Shown: one piece after another, positions 1 to 13,350 of the stretch
Position numbering within the stretch: position 1 is the first letter of the stretch
How the letters are laid out: the number at the start of each line of letters is the position of its first letter
Assembly (NCBI GenBank): GCA_035602295.1
Contig: DATNMN010000186.1
Span: 1 to 48,895, forward strand
Source of the DNA: Candidatus Dormiibacterota bacterium
GTDB taxonomy: Bacteria > Chloroflexota > Dormibacteria > CF-121
Direction: 5' to 3'
DNA length: 48,895 nucleotides
Notes under the pieces: generated by a model
Told to the model about the DNA's origin: nothing
Database searches by the model: none
What the model saw: only the letters and a program-made list of their open reading frames with translations
Program-made: the position numbers and the translations under genes

Positions 1-371
1 TCCAAAAGCAGTCGGTGCTTCGGTGTCAGGTTGGCGGCGTCGAGGTCTCCATTACGCAGCGCCGACGCAGCCTGCGAGTACTGCTCACCCTGCAACTGCA
101 GGAACCAGGCATGGCTGCTGAGTCAATAGTGGCAACGGTTGAGGGCCGAGACGTAGGACGCGATCATTTCGTGCTCCGCTCGGCTGAGCGCCCCGTCCGT
201 AAAGTGCAGGCGGCTCGCCTGGTCGATGGCACGCAGGAAGTCGGGTCGTAGGCTCATCGTCCGCAGGATGTCGGGAACGTTTCCCCTTGCCGACGTTTGC
301 TTCAGCTCACGGTAGAGGTCGGCGAGATCACCCGATGCGGCATCGTCCTCGATCCACGCGATCCGAGCCAT
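1..371 (-). CDS. AhpD-like / carboxymuconolactone-decarboxylase-family peroxidase-related protein. 3' end runs off the window. In-frame TGA at 123-125 sits at the second position of the CxxC redox motif (C-H-Y-U), so this is a candidate selenoprotein.
   Basis: The track ORF 123..371 ends ...SYVSALNRCHY-TGA. The same frame stays open from 122 to base 1 and reads LSSHAWFLQLQGEQYSQAASALRNGDLDAANLTPKHRLLL. The family core N-x-C-x-Y-C-x-x-S-H therefore continues straight through the TGA. Confidence 0.7.
89..102 (-). promoter_or_regulatory. SECIS-like hairpin downstream of the in-frame UGA
   Basis: The mRNA sense reads CCUGC-AGUU-GCAGG (5-bp stem, 4-nt loop containing G and U), starting 21 nt after the UGA. 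A possible outer stem is GCCUG (110-106) with CAGGC (74-70). Folding was done by eye only. Confidence 0.35.
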
Positions 372-401: not shown

Positions 402-890
402 TTACGGCTTGACCAGGCTCCAGCCGGTGTAGTTGCCCTTGGTGTCGCCTGCCGCGCTATCGCTGTGGAAGAAGTAGAGCGGCAGCCCTTTGTAGGTCAC
501 CTGCACAGAGCCGTCGCTACGGGTGATGGTCCCCAGCTGCCCGGTCACCCCGGGACCACCCGTCGGAGTCTGTCCACCCGTGATGGTCAGCGGCGGCCAG
601 GTCGTCGCGCATCCGCCGTTGCACTTGCTCGCGCCCGGCGTATCGCTGTCGAAGGTGTAGACGGTGTGGCTGTTGGAGGCGGCAACGAGGATCGTTCCCA
701 TGGTGCCGACGCTCTGCGCCAAAACGACCGCTGCCGCCGCCGGCGATGGGGACGGCGTTGGGCTTGGGGTTGCTGAGGGCGAGGGTGATGCGGTTGCCGC
801 GGGCCCGCTGGTCGAACCGCCGCACGCGGCGAGCAACACAGCCGAGCATGCCGCGACCGCGGCCATTCGCAACCAACGCACGAAAGCCAT
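402..890 (-). CDS. Secreted lipoprotein, COG4315 / PF03640 (Lipoprotein_15) repeat family
   Basis: Signal peptide with lipobox (MAFVRWLRMAAVAACSAVLLAAC-GG), then a Pro/Ser/Thr-rich linker. Two family-type repeats follow (TVYTFDSD...CNGGCATTWPPL and LPLYFFHSDS). The gene starts 12 nt after the Rieske gene stop. Confidence 0.8.
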   Translation of the reverse strand: MAFVRWLRMAAVAACSAVLLAACGGSTSGPAATASPSPSATPSPTPSPSPAAAAVVLAQSVGTMGTILVAASNSHTVYTFDSDTPGASKCNGGCATTWPPLTITGGQTPTGGPGVTGQLGTITRSDGSVQVTYKGLPLYFFHSDSAAGDTKGNYTGWSLVKP

Positions 891-902
891 TACGGCGAAC
901 CG

Positions 903-1568
903 TTACACCGTATAGACCTGGACCTGGCCCTTTTCGACCCGTACCTGCAGCGAAGGCAACGGCGAGAGTGGGCTCGAATAATTTGTGGGCTGGCCATCCT
1001 TCTCAAAGGTCGCCCCGTGGCAAGGGCACTCGAACCGATCGCGGAACTTGCTGTAGTTGAGGATGCAGGCCATGTGCGTGCAAACGCCGGAGAGACCCTT
1101 GACCTCCTGTCCTTGACGGATCAGGAACCCCTCGATGGCTCCAGACCGGAATGCGACCGGCGTCGCCTCCGGAAGGTCAGCCAGCGCTTTGATCGGTTTC
1201 CAGCTGCCGTTTTCGACGAGCTGCCGCGCGGTTTTTGGCGCCGCCTTGTCGACCTGCTGGATTCCGAGCACCGCCGCGATGCCGGCAGCGATACCCGCAG
1301 CACCCGTTAGCAGCAACGACCGGCGGCTGGGGCGCGAGGCCGGGTCCGGCTGCGCCGACCGCTCGCCGACCCAGTCGTGAATCGAGCCCTGCATGCGCTC
1401 CAGGAACTCCTTCGAGGGTAGCCCGGCTCCAGGCTTGGCCGCCCGCAGCATGGCGGCCGTCTGCCGCGCCCGTAGGGCGTCTTCGTCGGGCAACGGCGTC
1501 CGCTCAGGACGGCGGTCCTGCAACAGGTCCTCGACGTGCTTATCGAGTTGTTCGGGATCGTCGTTCAC
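903..1568 (-). CDS. Membrane-anchored Rieske [2Fe-2S] domain protein with a charged ~80-aa N-terminal extension; candidate anti-sigma factor
   Basis: Rieske motif CTH-x15-CPCH near the C-terminus. A single hydrophobic helix is preceded by the twin-arginine-like SRRSLLL. The start overlaps the ECF sigma stop by 4 nt (1565-1568). Confidence 0.8.
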   Translation of the reverse strand: MNDDPEQLDKHVEDLLQDRRPERTPLPDEDALRARQTAAMLRAAKPGAGLPSKEFLERMQGSIHDWVGERSAQPDPASRPSRRSLLLTGAAGIAAGIAAVLGIQQVDKAAPKTARQLVENGSWKPIKALADLPEATPVAFRSGAIEGFLIRQGQEVKGLSGVCTHMACILNYSKFRDRFECPCHGATFEKDGQPTNYSSPLSPLPSLQVRVEKGQVQVYTV

Positions 1569-2125
1569 GACGGCCTCCCGCGTTCCCGCCCGGCGCGGTT
1601 CAGCGCCCGGAACTGCAACACCTTGACGTTGGTCTCGCTGAGGTTGAGCTCCTGCGCGGTTTCCCGCACCGAATAGCCGCGCAGGAAGCGCAGCTCGAGC
1701 ACCCGTCGATAACTCTCGGGGAGCGTGGCGAGCAGCGCGTCCACCCGCTGGACGGCTTCGGGATTCTCACGGGGGGCGGGCTGCTGGGTCACATCGTCGT
1801 CGAGCTCGCCGGCGCCCTCCGCGTAATACTCGCGCCAGTGGTCGGCCAGGGTCGTCTGGGCGACCCGATACAGCCAGCTGCGCAGCTCGGGAACCGAGAC
1901 ATCGTTGCGCATGCCGTTGATCGCCTTCACGAACACCTGGGCGGTGAGATCCTCGGCGTCCGGGCGGTTACCGACTCGGCCGTAGATGTATTGATAAATG
2001 GCTGTCACATGCGTCTGGTAGGCCCATGTCAGGTGATCCTGGCCGTGGGGGGCGTCGACGTGAGGCAGCGGGACGATCTTCCCGGAGGAAGCGACGGCGG
2101 CGCCGGTTGTCTGGTCCTCACGCAT
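1565..2125 (-). CDS. ECF-type RNA polymerase sigma-70 family factor
   Basis: Region 2 (PDAEDLTAQVFVKA, WLYRVAQT) and region 4 HTH (YSVRETAQELNLSETNVKVLQFRALNRA) are present. At 186 aa the size is typical for ECF sigma factors. Confidence 0.9.
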   Translation of the reverse strand: MREDQTTGAAVASSGKIVPLPHVDAPHGQDHLTWAYQTHVTAIYQYIYGRVGNRPDAEDLTAQVFVKAINGMRNDVSVPELRSWLYRVAQTTLADHWREYYAEGAGELDDDVTQQPAPRENPEAVQRVDALLATLPESYRRVLELRFLRGYSVRETAQELNLSETNVKVLQFRALNRAGRERGRPS

Positions 2126-2242
2126 CCGCTTCCGCAGTTATATACCGCCCGGGGTTACGTGGTCGCAACCGCCCGTAATCCAGGCCCTGTTCAGCGGGGG
2201 GCCAATGTGGGAATACTGGAGTAGGGAAAGAGCTTAGATAAC

Positions 2243-3259
2243 ATGGGAGCTTCGCAACCGATGGAAAAAGATCGTCAGTACGACGTGGTCATCATCGGCG
2301 CCGGGCCAGCGGGCCTGACCGCCGCCTTGTACGCCGGCCGGGCGCGGGTCAAGACCGTGCTGCTGGAGCGGGGGGCGCCGGGTGGGCAGCTACTCAACAC
2401 CGACGCGATCGAGGACTACCCGGGATTCGACCACATCACCGGGCCGGAGCTGGCCCAGCGCATGGCCGACCAGGCCGTCAAGTTCGGCGTCGAGCTGGAG
2501 ACCGCCCGTGTGACCGCCATCCACCGTCGCGGCGACAAGCAGGTTGTCGAGACCGAAGACGGTGAGTACGTTGCGGACTACGTCATCCTGACCGCGGGCG
2601 GCGAGCCGCTGAAGCTCGGTATCCCCGGAGAGAACGAGTTCCAGGGGCGCGGTGTCTCCCAGTGCGCCGTCTGCGATGGCGCCTTCTTCAAGGAAGAGGA
2701 GGTGGCCGTGGTCGGCGGCGGCGATGCCGCGCTCGAGGAGGGCGTCTTCTTGACGCGCTTCGCAAAGAAGGTTTACATCATCCACAGGCGCGAGCAGTTC
2801 CGCGCCCAGGCCATCCTGGTCGAGGCGGCGCGCAAGCACCCCAAGGTCGAGCTGATCACCAACACGATCGTCACCGAGGTCAAGGGTGAGGACGGCCAGG
2901 TTAAGGAGATCACGTTGAAGGATGTCGCCAGCGGCCAGACCCGACCGCTGAAGGTCACCGGCGTTTTCATCTTCATAGGGTTCCAGCCGAACGTCCAGTT
3001 CTTCGACCACCGGGAACACGTCGAGCATGACCCGCTGGGATTCATCGTGACCGACTCGACGATGCAAACGAGCCTGCCGGGCGTCTACGCGGCCGGCGAC
3101 GTGCGGTCGCAGCTCACGCGGCAGATCACAACCGCCGTCGGGGACGCGACCACAGCCGCCATCGACGCGGTCAAGAAGCTCGAGGCGAAGAAGCACCAGC
3201 TCACGCCCGTGCCGGTCGACCTCTACGGCCCCACCCGGCCGGACCTCGTCGGCAGCTAA
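2243..3259 (+). CDS. trxB: Thioredoxin-disulfide reductase
   Basis: FAD-binding VVIIGAGPAG, redox-active CAVCDG, NADPH-binding VVGGGDAA, and C-terminal AAGDV. ATG at 2261, preceded by GGGAG at 2246-2250, is an alternative start. Confidence 0.9.
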   Translation: MGASQPMEKDRQYDVVIIGAGPAGLTAALYAGRARVKTVLLERGAPGGQLLNTDAIEDYPGFDHITGPELAQRMADQAVKFGVELETARVTAIHRRGDKQVVETEDGEYVADYVILTAGGEPLKLGIPGENEFQGRGVSQCAVCDGAFFKEEEVAVVGGGDAALEEGVFLTRFAKKVYIIHRREQFRAQAILVEAARKHPKVELITNTIVTEVKGEDGQVKEITLKDVASGQTRPLKVTGVFIFIGFQPNVQFFDHREHVEHDPLGFIVTDSTMQTSLPGVYAAGDVRSQLTRQITTAVGDATTAAIDAVKKLEAKKHQLTPVPVDLYGPTRPDLVGS

Positions 3260-10984: not shown

Positions 10985-12805
10985 CTAGAACCCAGAGAAC
11001 CCAGGGAAAATGGGGCCTTTCGCGACCGACGTCGCCGCGCCGTCGGCATGGACCAGCCAGAGCTGATCGACGGGCGCCTGTCCGGTCCCATCCGCGGCTA
11101 CCGCGACCATGAAGTCCGTGCCGCCGGGTCTGCCTATGGCAAGCACATAGGCCTGGTCTGGGGCGACGCCGGCCGGCTCGGCGAGGCGCCAGAGAATCTG
11201 CCCACGCTGCCAGTCGACGAGGCGCACTTCGCGGTTGCCGACAGCGCCGTGGGCGGGCATCGTAATCACTCGTGAGCCGTCCCAGGAGAACGCGACCACG
11301 GCCTGGCCGCCGGCGAGCCGCGCGACCACCGTGCCGTCTGAGGTGCGCCGAATGAGCGTATCGCCGTAAACCTGAAGGCCCTGGGCATCGGGCGACAGCG
11401 TCTGTTCCGCGAGGTATCGCCCATCGTGCGACGCCACGACCGAGGAGGCAACGGTGCTGCTGGGGTACTGGCGCTGATAGATCACCGTCCCGGTCGACAG
11501 CCGGATGACTCGAACCTCCGAAGTCCACATGATGACGTCCTCCACGACCACAGCGCGATCGTTCTGATAGCTGCAAGCAACGATTCGCGGGCCCGATTGC
11601 CCACCGACCTGGCCGACCTGGGCAACGCGATGCAGCGACCCGCCGATGGGTCCCGTAAAGAGCCAGCTCGGCTCCCCATCTCCCCCGAAATCGCCGCCGG
11701 TGGCATTACGCATAGCGCAGACGTGCCGGCTGTCGTCGGCAAACGAGCCCGGGCCACCCTTGAGGCCAAGCGCCGGGCCCAGGAGCGTTCCGGCCTGATC
11801 GGCATACTCGGTGCCGATAAAGAGACGCGTTCCATCGGGTGCCTGAAGGGCCCCACTCGTGTTGTAGAGGCTGCCAACCAGCGTCCCGTTCCAATCCAGG
11901 GCCAGCAGCCGGTACACCGGGTTGGGGTCTGGTGGACGGTTCGAGAGCGGGTTCGATGTCGCGTACCAGATCAGGGGAATGTTCTTCGGCGGCGCACCGG
12001 GTTCGGCGGTGAAGCTCCAGTCCTTATGGAAGTTGGCGGCGAGGTTGCCGAAGTCCAGGTCCAGCAGGAGTCGGTACGACCGTAGTGGTTGGAGTCCGGT
12101 GTAGTTGAGGGCCCAGGTGCTGTCGGTCCATTTCCCGGCCTGCAGGGTGCCGTCGGCCGGCTCGAAGCGAATCACCGGATCGACCGCCGGGCGGTGGGCG
12201 AACTGAATGCTCAGCTGGCCGTTGCGGGCGATGCCTGTCTCACCAGCCGCCGGTGTGGAGGCCGTAATCTGCGCGGGTCCCTCCGCCGTGAAGCTCCAGC
12301 GCTGTTCAAAGTGACCTTTGTCGCCCTGGTGACTGCGGTAGTCCGCGGAGAGGATCAATTGGTAGCGCGCGCTGGGATGCAGTCCAGCGTATTTCACGGT
12401 CATGGTCGTTCCGGACCATGCGAGAGGTTGGAGCGTGGCATCAGCCGGCTCGGCCCGCAACGCCGGGTCGATCGTCGGGCGGGTGGCGAAGTCGACGCGG
12501 AATTCGCCCTTCAGCGGCACATCGCGGGCACCATCCGCAGGAAAGACGGAGGTCACGTGGGGCGCCGACTTGGCGAGCTCGTTGGCGCGAAGTTTCAGCA
12601 CGACCCCCATCGCGCCAACGGCCACGAGCACGATAGCGGCCGCCGCGGCCAGCTGGACCATGAACCGATGCGAACGGACGGGCGCACGACCATCGAGCCG
12701 CCCGATGATGCGCGCATGCAGGTTCGGACTGACCCGTGCCTCATCCCGAAGGACGGATCCGTAGTGTTGGAGGCGCGTCTCGAGCTGGGGGTCTTCGGTG
12801 ATCAT
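10985..12805 (-). CDS. Anti-sigma-like single-pass membrane protein with 2x Big_5-like Ig domains and a beta-propeller-like C-domain; paralogue 2
   Basis: The start overlaps the upstream ECF sigma stop by 4 nt. The short N-domain has an anti-sigma-like 'LHARIIGRL', followed by a TM helix. The extracytoplasmic architecture is the same as 8961..10934. Confidence 0.75.
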   Translation of the reverse strand: MITEDPQLETRLQHYGSVLRDEARVSPNLHARIIGRLDGRAPVRSHRFMVQLAAAAAIVLVAVGAMGVVLKLRANELAKSAPHVTSVFPADGARDVPLKGEFRVDFATRPTIDPALRAEPADATLQPLAWSGTTMTVKYAGLHPSARYQLILSADYRSHQGDKGHFEQRWSFTAEGPAQITASTPAAGETGIARNGQLSIQFAHRPAVDPVIRFEPADGTLQAGKWTDSTWALNYTGLQPLRSYRLLLDLDFGNLAANFHKDWSFTAEPGAPPKNIPLIWYATSNPLSNRPPDPNPVYRLLALDWNGTLVGSLYNTSGALQAPDGTRLFIGTEYADQAGTLLGPALGLKGGPGSFADDSRHVCAMRNATGGDFGGDGEPSWLFTGPIGGSLHRVAQVGQVGGQSGPRIVACSYQNDRAVVVEDVIMWTSEVRVIRLSTGTVIYQRQYPSSTVASSVVASHDGRYLAEQTLSPDAQGLQVYGDTLIRRTSDGTVVARLAGGQAVVAFSWDGSRVITMPAHGAVGNREVRLVDWQRGQILWRLAEPAGVAPDQAYVLAIGRPGGTDFMVAVAADGTGQAPVDQLWLVHADGAATSVAKGPIFPGFSGF

Positions 12806-13350
12806 GCCTCCACTCCTCGCGCCGCGACGGCAGAGGCCATCCTGCGCCGCAGCTTGGCCAGCGACCGGTGAACGATCACCCTCGCATGGTTCTCGCTCAC
12901 GGCCAGGGTCGTTGCGGTTTCAGCGAACGAACGGTCTTCGAAGTAACGCAGGTGCACCGCCGCTCGCTCCCGCGGATCGAGCTGGCGCAGCGCGTCAACC
13001 AGGGCCGCATCATCGGCCCGGCGCTCCACCTCGTCGAACGGGTTCGGCGGCGGCGGCGCCCAGAAGCTGAGCAGCGACCAGCGCTTGCGATGCCGGGCCT
13101 GGTCGCGGGCGAGGTTCAAGATGGCCCGATAGAGCCAGCGTTTGAATTCGCTTCTCTCCTGGGGGGTGTTCTTCGCGGCCCAGACATTCGCAAAGGCCTG
13201 CTGCACGATCTCTTCCGCCTGCTCCCGGTCATGCACGAGCGTCATGGCGAAACCGAAGGCGTTGTCCTCCAGCTCCACTACGAGGGGTTCGAACCATGGC
13301 CGATCGTTCGATTTCAGAGCGTCCTCCCTTTTCGGAATCCCACGGCACAA
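12802..13350 (-). CDS. ECF-type sigma-70 family factor
   Basis: Region 2 (EQAEEIVQQAFANVW, WLYRAILNLARD) and region 4 (LDPRERAAVHLRYFEDRSFAETATTLAVSENHARVIVHRSLAKLR). A strong SD (AAGGGAGGA, 13322-13330) points to a CTG at 13317 rather than the TTG at 13350. Confidence 0.85.
   Translation of the reverse strand: MCRGIPKREDALKSNDRPWFEPLVVELEDNAFGFAMTLVHDREQAEEIVQQAFANVWAAKNTPQERSEFKRWLYRAILNLARDQARHRKRWSLLSFWAPPPPNPFDEVERRADDAALVDALRQLDPRERAAVHLRYFEDRSFAETATTLAVSENHARVIVHRSLAKLRRRMASAVAARGVEA

Follow-up and report, generated by a model that had tools for sequence, protein, structure and literature searches.

The window analyzed in this study, a stretch of DNA of 48,895 nucleotides, is contig C186 of a metagenome-assembled Candidatus Dormibacterota genome that is 76% complete. 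Its minus strand carries a head-to-tail array of four genes encoding, in this order, a sigma factor of the extracytoplasmic function (ECF) type, a Rieske protein, a Lipoprotein_15 protein and an AhpD/CMD-like protein. The present work deals with the pair formed by the first two genes. The initial annotation, prepared from the sequence alone, had placed the Rieske protein in the position normally held by a cognate anti-sigma factor, at the head of a redox operon. The genes and their arrangement, including the tight array with a COG4315 lipoprotein and a selenoprotein candidate downstream and the divergently transcribed thioredoxin reductase gene (trxR), were found as described there (Table 1).

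The product of the first gene was confirmed as an ECF (group 4) member of the sigma-70 family. The Pfam domains Sigma70_r2 and Sigma70_r4_2 were matched with E-values of 1.4e-9 and 2e-13, respectively, and the TIGR02937 model scored 71.8 bits (cut-off 42.9). Sigma-2 spans residues 36–99 and sigma-4 residues 126–176, and an N-terminal extension of about 35 amino acids precedes them. The closest solved structure is sigma-BldN (6dxo_A, E 5e-14), and the BldN family (TIGR02952; ECF121) is the nearest NCBIfam family. The protein itself falls outside that family, with a score of 89.6 bits against a curated equivalog cut-off of 206.45.

The TGA stop codon of the sigma factor gene and the GTG start codon of the Rieske gene share the sequence GTGA, which accounts for the 4-nt overlap noted earlier. 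Downstream of the Rieske gene, gaps of 12 nt and 30 nt precede the Lipoprotein_15 gene and the AhpD-like gene, respectively. The true start codon of the Lipoprotein_15 gene is probably a conserved GTG at 879–881.

Conservation of the sigma-Rieske gene pair

The association of the two genes was surveyed in both directions in 41 related Dormibacteria genomes. In the Rieske-first survey, which comprised 12 close and 12 distant loci, a sigma homologue was located directly upstream of the Rieske gene in 24/24 loci, mostly with the same 4-nt overlap. In the sigma-first survey, each of the 39 sigma matches at E < 1e-28 abutted a Rieske match (39/39), and two weaker sigma matches had no adjoining Rieske match. 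Genomes without this sigma factor encoded only short Rieske proteins that lack the N-terminal module described below.

A scan of 185,579 public species genomes revealed approximately 47 loci with the pair. Its carriers included Dormibacterota, Chloroflexota/Limnocylindria, Actinomadura terrae, A. syzygii, Candidatus Acidoferrum and a Verrucomicrobiia record. Every full-length public Rieske match adjoined a sigma factor gene, and Rieske matches that started at the twin-arginine (RR) motif, without the N-terminal module, had no sigma factor gene nearby. The trxR, lipoprotein and AhpD genes were found beside the pair only in the genus and its nearest relatives. The adjacency of the sigma factor and Rieske genes is more than chance, because it was kept in every full-length homologue examined. 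The strict one-to-one pairing bears out the conservation that the initial annotation had named as a check of its proposal.

Natural single-chain products in which the sigma factor is read through into its neighbor were also searched for, as substitutes for a complex in folding, with stop codons allowed to encode a residue and/or CGGN to be decoded as a quadruplet. No more than two loci emerged, each needing five frameshifts that garble both proteins, and this approach was rejected.

Architecture of the Rieske protein

Three parts were distinguished in the Rieske protein, namely an N-terminal module of about 75 amino acids, an RR motif with a hydrophobic stretch, and a C-terminal Rieske domain. 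The initial annotation had described the N-terminal segment as ending in LPSKEFLERMQGSI and as lacking the zinc-binding HxxxCxxC motif of anti-sigma factors. The sequence is present as stated, and residues 1–78 are free of cysteine. AlphaFold2 (AF2) models of the module contain three predicted helices (residues 5–16, 29–44, and 53–71).

Among close relatives, conservation of the Rieske protein is highest in the N-terminal module. Homologue P0017 shares 98% identity over residues 1–80 versus 89% overall, and homologue P0030 shares 96% versus 86%. Residues R20, P21, A38, L41, P51, and F55 are kept across phyla, and a linker of the form P-G-x-x-x-P is conserved. In the 25 genomes examined, the module was restricted to genes adjoining this sigma clade.

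The module was also found in other architectures. In a paralogous sigma-Rieske clade (loci L017, L023, L037, and L039), an additional soluble open reading frame of about 72 amino acids, consisting of the module alone, lies between the sigma factor and Rieske genes. Genomes with both sigma-Rieske clades may run two insulated systems. An exhaustive profile search with the module against 1.84 billion representative proteins gave 628 matches, most of which are Rieske proteins. One match (P0221, from the locus L105:1727-3612) combines the module with a transmembrane segment and, at the C-terminus, an unrelated domain of about 110 amino acids without a Pfam match. Its gene overlaps by 4 nt an ECF sigma factor gene whose product is 40% identical to the sigma factor of the window, and is followed by a Lipoprotein_15 gene preceded by GTAAC-N7-CCTA. 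A word-based protein search with residues 1–80 returned close relatives only; the other architectures surfaced in the exhaustive search.

Based on these comparisons, residues 1–72 are read as the putative sigma-binding (anti-sigma) domain. The module appears to behave as a sigma-binding part. A constant sigma-side module with swapped outer domains typifies anti-sigma families, and among the indirect arguments for an anti-sigma role this module swapping carries the most weight.

The SRRSLLL motif pointed out in the initial annotation as twin-arginine-like is present. Across 31 sequences that represent several phyla, residues R82 and R83 do not vary and stand in the context S/T-R-R-x-L-L. With an S/T-R-R-x-F/L-L motif ahead of a hydrophobic stretch and the machinery for twin-arginine translocation (Tat) encoded in the genome (two TatC genes), the segment has the features of a Tat signal-anchor, and residues 80–104 are read as a Tat signal-anchor or transmembrane segment. 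The genome also encodes several M50 site-2 proteases.

The C-terminal part is a complete Rieske domain, in agreement with the initial annotation. PF00355 scored 48.6 bits (cut-off 20.3), and the domain was modeled in the Rieske fold with a predicted local distance difference test score (pLDDT) above 90. The cluster ligands C163, H165, C181, and H184 lie in the sequence C163-T-H165-x15-C181-P-C183-H184, and the disulfide pair C168/C183 is invariant. The top Foldseek matches of the domain were the Rieske protein of the Chlorobaculum bc-complex (8hn2, E 7e-9), Kuenenia kuste4569, AioB of arsenite oxidase, and PetC/PetC3. The invariant disulfide cysteines, which are of the bc1/b6f type, fit a location outside the cytoplasm, and the Rieske domain is predicted to lie outside the cytoplasmic membrane.

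The Rieske protein of the window is not the respiratory subunit, because a separate Rieske gene (encoding 171 amino acids) adjoins cytochrome b in the relative G022 and because the scores with the respiratory models are far below their cut-offs (PetC, 40.6 bits vs. 250; QcrA, 23.5 bits vs. 275). No cytochrome b gene was found in the locus.

Taken together, the sequence comparisons suggest that the 221-aa Rieske protein is probably the cognate membrane-bound regulator, and most likely the anti-sigma factor, of the overlapping ECF sigma factor. The view of the initial annotation that the protein stands in the anti-sigma position and looks like a regulator of the sigma factor is upheld by the overlap kept across phyla, the reciprocal pairing, and the conserved, modular N-terminus.

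Several observations weigh against this assignment. The AF2 confidence for the module was moderate (pLDDT 65–80; predicted template modeling score, pTM, 0.32) and no confident packing was obtained, a result that also fits a domain folding on its partner. The hydrophobic segment received low confidence in AF2 and was not modeled as a helix. The module profiles A1 and A4 matched no known anti-sigma domain among the PDB sequences (E <= 10). The module profile alignments comprised 13 rows and 27 rows, and the matches of the module profile and Pfam searches, such as retroviral capsid and TruB_C, were noise. Likewise, Pfam scans of 13 members revealed neither an anti-sigma family nor zf-HC2, and Foldseek found nothing below E 9 in the PDB with the model of the isolated module, which is a weak negative at a pTM of 0.32. 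Furthermore, some family members have lost a cluster ligand (P0166, P0187, and P0200, with CPCR, CTD, and CPCD in place of CPCH, CTH, and CPCH, respectively); the cluster is therefore not needed in every lineage. Finally, the comparative evidence shows association, and the direction of control, inhibitor or activator, is not readable from sequence.

The ligand-lost members keep the N-terminal module and the signature of the Rieske fold and may be cluster-free sensor variants.

With respect to the known classes of anti-sigma domains, the module does not belong to the zinc-binding anti-sigma (ZAS) type represented by RsrA, RslA, and ChrR, as it has neither a cysteine in residues 1–78 nor a zf-HC2 domain. 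No similarity in sequence or fold was found to the class I and class II domains (RseA, RsiW, RskA, CnrY, and NepR), the fold test being a weak one at the low model confidence. The class III layout (RsbN), with three helices followed by an RR-hydrophobic segment, was found, as a resemblance in layout only.

The lack of homology to any anti-sigma domain is also what would be seen if the Rieske protein were no more than one of the sigma factor's targets, transcribed together with it. It would then be an exported electron carrier working with cupredoxins, its N-terminus would be a long Tat n-region or a chaperone site, and the sigma factor would be controlled otherwise, for example by its own 35-aa N-terminal extension. 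Target genes are often located within ECF operons, the Rieske domain forms an ordinary and complete module for electron transfer, most similar to the Rieske proteins of bc-complexes, AioB, and PetC3, and cupredoxins as plausible redox partners adjoin the pair or bear the motif described below. Nevertheless, we consider this explanation unlikely. The module is the best conserved part of the protein and occurs only beside this sigma clade, and neither its occurrence as a soluble 72-aa open reading frame nor that on a non-Rieske protein overlapping an ECF sigma factor gene fits a Tat n-region. Ordinary Tat-Rieske paralogues have neither the module nor a sigma factor gene, and the examined loci contain no other anti-sigma candidate.

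As the evidence concerns association and not the direction of control, the Rieske protein might also bind the sigma factor as an activator ("pro-sigma" factor), like FecR on FecI. Regulators of the FecR type bind their sigma factor through a cytoplasmic N-terminal part, cross the membrane once, and carry a sensor on the outside, which is the topology predicted for the Rieske protein. This possibility is given a still smaller probability than the target-only explanation. Pfam searches gave no match to the N-terminal domain of FecR, and most ECF sigma factor partners that span the membrane once are inhibitors. BldN, the nearest solved relative of the sigma factor, is inhibited by a three-helix partner (PMC6101532).

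Sequence motif, putative regulon and neighboring genes

Upstream of the sigma factor gene, a GTAAC-N7-GGTA motif was detected (GTAACCCCGGGCGGTA). In 23 genus-level loci both boxes are invariant and the 7-bp spacer is variable. Beyond the genus, GTAAC-N7-(C/G)GTA was present on the sense strand upstream of the sigma factor gene in 31 of the 46 distinct distant loci, compared to 0 on the antisense strand and a mean of 0.09 in shuffled sequences. The paralogous sigma-Rieske clade has GTATC instead of GTAAC as the first box. The motif at 2143–2158 is read as the putative autoregulated promoter of the sigma factor.

A total of 12 exact N7 copies of the motif was found in this genome. They include copies upstream of the sigma factor gene, the Lipoprotein_15 gene of the window, a second Lipoprotein_15 gene (C76), two genes for cupredoxins, the gene of a small lipoprotein, and a DUF6855 gene. 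In addition, an N6 copy precedes the gene of a 374-aa secreted protein. The copy upstream of the Lipoprotein_15 gene (GTAACGGTTCGCCGTA in the window) was kept in 8/8 distinct genus-level loci, even when the gene had moved away from the Rieske gene, and Lipoprotein_15 is likely a direct target of the sigma factor. Cupredoxin genes were located at most 4 kb from the pair in at least 17 distant loci. Because the motif marks the genes for Lipoprotein_15, cupredoxins, and other exported proteins and not trxR, the sigma factor seems to have copper and redox proteins that are exported as its output rather than the thioredoxin system.

One motif-bearing gene (C14:~11500-13230, minus strand) encodes a 574-aa secreted protein with an N-terminal cupredoxin domain and three repeats of about 150 amino acids without a Pfam match.

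The two boxes of the motif correspond to the −35 and −10 words of promoters of the BldN, ShbA, and SigD type, which read CGTAAC-N16-CGTTGA, CGTAAC-N16-CGATGA, and GTAAC-N17-18-CGAT, respectively (PMC2375139, PMC12019637). Here they are spaced by only 6–7 bp, about 10 bp too short. Two ways of restoring a normal geometry were considered and rejected. If GTAAC were a normal −35 box, its partner should lie 16–17 bp downstream, where nothing is conserved; moreover, the start codons of several motif-bearing genes lie 9–20 nt after CGTA, which therefore excludes the 16–17 bp geometry at those sites. A hidden −35 box upstream of GTAAC was not apparent either, as no informative column was found from −42 to −13. 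Besides the two boxes, no column around the motif was conserved.

The neighboring genes trxR and AhpD had led the initial annotation to compare the locus with the SigR-RsrA-trxB logic of a thiol/redox circuit, in which trxR and an AhpD-like peroxidase would be the main outputs. A divergent trxR and an AhpD-like selenoprotein gene in the array are indeed present in this genus. However, no GTAAC-N7-(C/G)GTA was found upstream of trxR in 16 distinct loci. The trxR promoter region (2160–2242) instead has its own two blocks that are strongly conserved in the genus, TGGGAATACTG and, abutting the ATG, GCTTAGATAAC. The trxR gene is absent from every distant sigma-Rieske locus, the AhpD copy of the motif, with N6-CGTC, lacks conservation, a ZAS motif is missing from the module, and the conserved partners are cupredoxins and Lipoprotein_15. 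A circuit of the SigR-RsrA-TrxBA type is thus very improbable, and trxR is probably outside the sigma-Rieske system. The framing as a redox operon was not supported either: the targets defined by the motif are cupredoxins, Lipoprotein_15, and other exported proteins, and the AhpD-like gene is tied to the system by position only (30-nt gap).

The GCTTAGATAAC block upstream of trxR resembles a GGTATATAAC block located downstream of the sigma motif.

The AhpD-like gene was supported by Pfam CMD, TIGR01926, and the AhpD_rel_CFYUT model. Its in-frame TGA and a downstream frame of about 115 amino acids were kept in 6/6 distinct relatives. A perfect palindrome (CCTGCAGTTGCAGG), located about 25 nt after the TGA, is a candidate selenocysteine insertion sequence (SECIS), and a tRNA-Sec was not found by aragorn in this 76%-complete genome. 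As a direct target of the sigma factor, the AhpD-like gene was rejected, since its motif copy (GTAAC-N6-CGTC) is weak and occurs in only 3/6 distinct relatives. It may be co-transcribed with the Lipoprotein_15 gene.

Table 1. Features of the sigma-Rieske locus and related sites. Positions refer to the window unless preceded by another contig or locus.
Feature	Position	Strand	Remarks
ECF sigma factor	1565-2125	-	186 aa; Pfam Sigma70_r2, Sigma70_r4_2; TIGR02937
Rieske protein	903-1568	-	221 aa; GTG start
N-terminal module of the Rieske protein (residues 1-72), predicted cytoplasmic	1353-1568	-	AF2 models, three helices
Twin-arginine motif and hydrophobic stretch (residues 80-104)	1257-1331	-	S-R-R-S-L-L-L, Gly/Ala-rich
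Rieske [2Fe-2S] domain (residues 120-221)	906-1211	-	Pfam PF00355
GTAAC-N7-GGTA motif GTAACCCCGGGCGGTA	2143-2158	-	17 nt upstream of sigma ATG
Second motif copy GTAACGGTTCGCCGTA	891-906	-	overlaps the stop codon of the Rieske gene and lies immediately upstream of the Lipoprotein_15 gene
Lipoprotein_15 (COG4315) lipoprotein	402-890	-	162 aa; Pfam PF03640, E 2.6e-25
AhpD/CMD-like candidate selenoprotein	1-371	-	C-H-Y-U, TGA at 123-125; truncated by the contig end
Thioredoxin reductase (trxR)	2243-3259	+	TIGR01292, 371 bits (cut-off 343); divergent from the sigma factor gene
Stand-alone module	L017:4651-4977 (G003:C60)	-	also in L023, L037, L039
Motif sites elsewhere in the genome	C14:13310, C31:912, C60:14264, C76:103, C6:7604, C178:1264		

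Proposed regulation and comparison with known systems

Based on the assignment of the Rieske protein as an anti-sigma factor, the following sequence of events is conceivable. The N-terminal module would lie in the cytoplasm and hold the sigma factor much as the three-helix RsbN holds sigma-BldN. The Rieske protein would receive its [2Fe-2S] cluster in the cytoplasm, and the loaded protein would be inserted by the Tat system, with the Rieske domain facing outward and the RR segment remaining as an anchor. The signal would be a change in the outward cluster, namely its loss, damage, or redox state, and failed cluster loading or export would act in the same way. Either event would destabilize the Rieske protein, probably via proteolysis, for which the M50 site-2 proteases of the genome are candidates, and would free the sigma factor. 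Once freed, the sigma factor would transcribe the operon to which it belongs, together with genes for a limited number of exported copper and redox proteins. Candidate signals are iron-sulfur supply, copper stress, oxidant, and electron flow through cupredoxins.

A broader proposal is put forward more tentatively, as we regard it as possible but doubtful in its entirety. The multi-phylum family would comprise the first anti-sigma factors that sense by an extracytoplasmic iron-sulfur (Fe-S) cluster. Because the membrane would be reached only after cluster loading and Tat export, the inhibitor level would reflect both Fe-S assembly and the integrity of the cluster, and in response the cell would switch to exported copper proteins (cupredoxins and Lipoprotein_15). 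The sigma factor would read a compact GTAAC-N6/7-CGTA promoter, with boxes closer together, by about one turn of the helix, than those of any ECF promoter described. Should the short-spacer motif be a promoter, the assumption that ECF promoters are recognized in a fixed geometry would be called into question.

Pairs of ECF sigma and anti-sigma factors are one main route of bacterial envelope sensing. The anti-sigma factors known so far sense through zinc-thiol sites, through domains sensitive to proteases, or through domains that bind a ligand. An outward Rieske cluster would, if the anti-sigma assignment is true, add an extracytoplasmic Fe-S centre as a new sensing principle and couple transcription to Fe-S assembly and Tat export. 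Thousands of genes from soil Dormibacterota, Chloroflexota, and Actinomycetota that bear no annotation beyond "Rieske (2Fe-2S) protein" or "cytochrome b6-f iron-sulfur subunit" would then also gain a function. The presence of the pair in cultured Actinomadura makes the system testable at the bench.

The initial annotation knew of no characterized Rieske-type anti-sigma factor, and full-text literature searches for Rieske in combination with anti-sigma or ECF likewise revealed no paper on one. Rieske proteins are also unmentioned in the main text of the ECF re-classification paper. Compared to what is published, the new element would be an ECF anti-sigma factor that combines an unclassified three-helix sigma-side module with an exported Rieske cluster as the sensor.

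The closest parallel is RsbN, the anti-sigma factor of BldN from Streptomyces venezuelae (PDB 6DXO). RsbN has three cytoplasmic N-terminal helices joined by flexible, proline-containing linkers followed by one transmembrane segment, and had no known structural relatives when it was solved (PMC6101532). The three predicted helices of the Rieske protein and their P-G-x-x-x-P linker match this layout, the sigma factor of the window is closest to BldN among the solved structures and NCBIfam models, and the first word of the putative promoter, CGTAAC, is common to both systems (PMC2375139). In contrast, the sigma factor scored 89.6 bits with the BldN family against a cut-off of 206, and the promoter spacer is 6–7 bp instead of 16. 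RsbN itself (6dxo_B) was absent from the module profile searches at E <= 10, with no sequence similarity, and its homologues are reported in Streptomyces only, with another extracytoplasmic part. The module resembles RsbN in its layout rather than through demonstrated homology.

The RsrA/SigR system of actinobacteria shares with the sigma-Rieske pair an ECF sigma factor with a partner that bears a redox-active metal or thiol centre, and trxR lies nearby in this genus. RsrA, however, is soluble and cytoplasmic and senses by an HxxxCxxC zinc-thiolate site inside the anti-sigma domain, whereas the module of the window protein is cysteine-free, its predicted [2Fe-2S] centre lies across the membrane, and trxR does not carry the regulon motif.

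Compared to the Rieske proteins of bc1 and b6f complexes and to stand-alone membrane Rieske proteins (such as cyanobacterial PetC3, 5cxm), the window protein has the same fold, ligands, and disulfide pair, and a predicted uncleaved twin-arginine signal-anchor. It differs from the bc1/b6f subunits in that its gene has no adjacent cytochrome b gene, a respiratory paralogue being encoded elsewhere, and in that it scores only about 40 bits against the PetC cut-off of 250. Moreover, it adds a conserved, predicted cytoplasmic module of about 75 amino acids and is coupled to a sigma factor gene.

Cytoplasmic Fe-S sensors of transcription include IscR, NsrR, SoxR, FNR, and the WhiB-like proteins that bind sigma-A. 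As in these proteins, an Fe-S cluster would be the signal-reading element of a transcription switch in the sigma-Rieske system. Whereas those sensors are soluble, bind DNA or a sigma factor, and carry clusters ligated by cysteine, the window protein has a His/Cys Rieske centre, for which an extracytoplasmic location and a connection through the membrane to the putative sigma-binding part are predicted.

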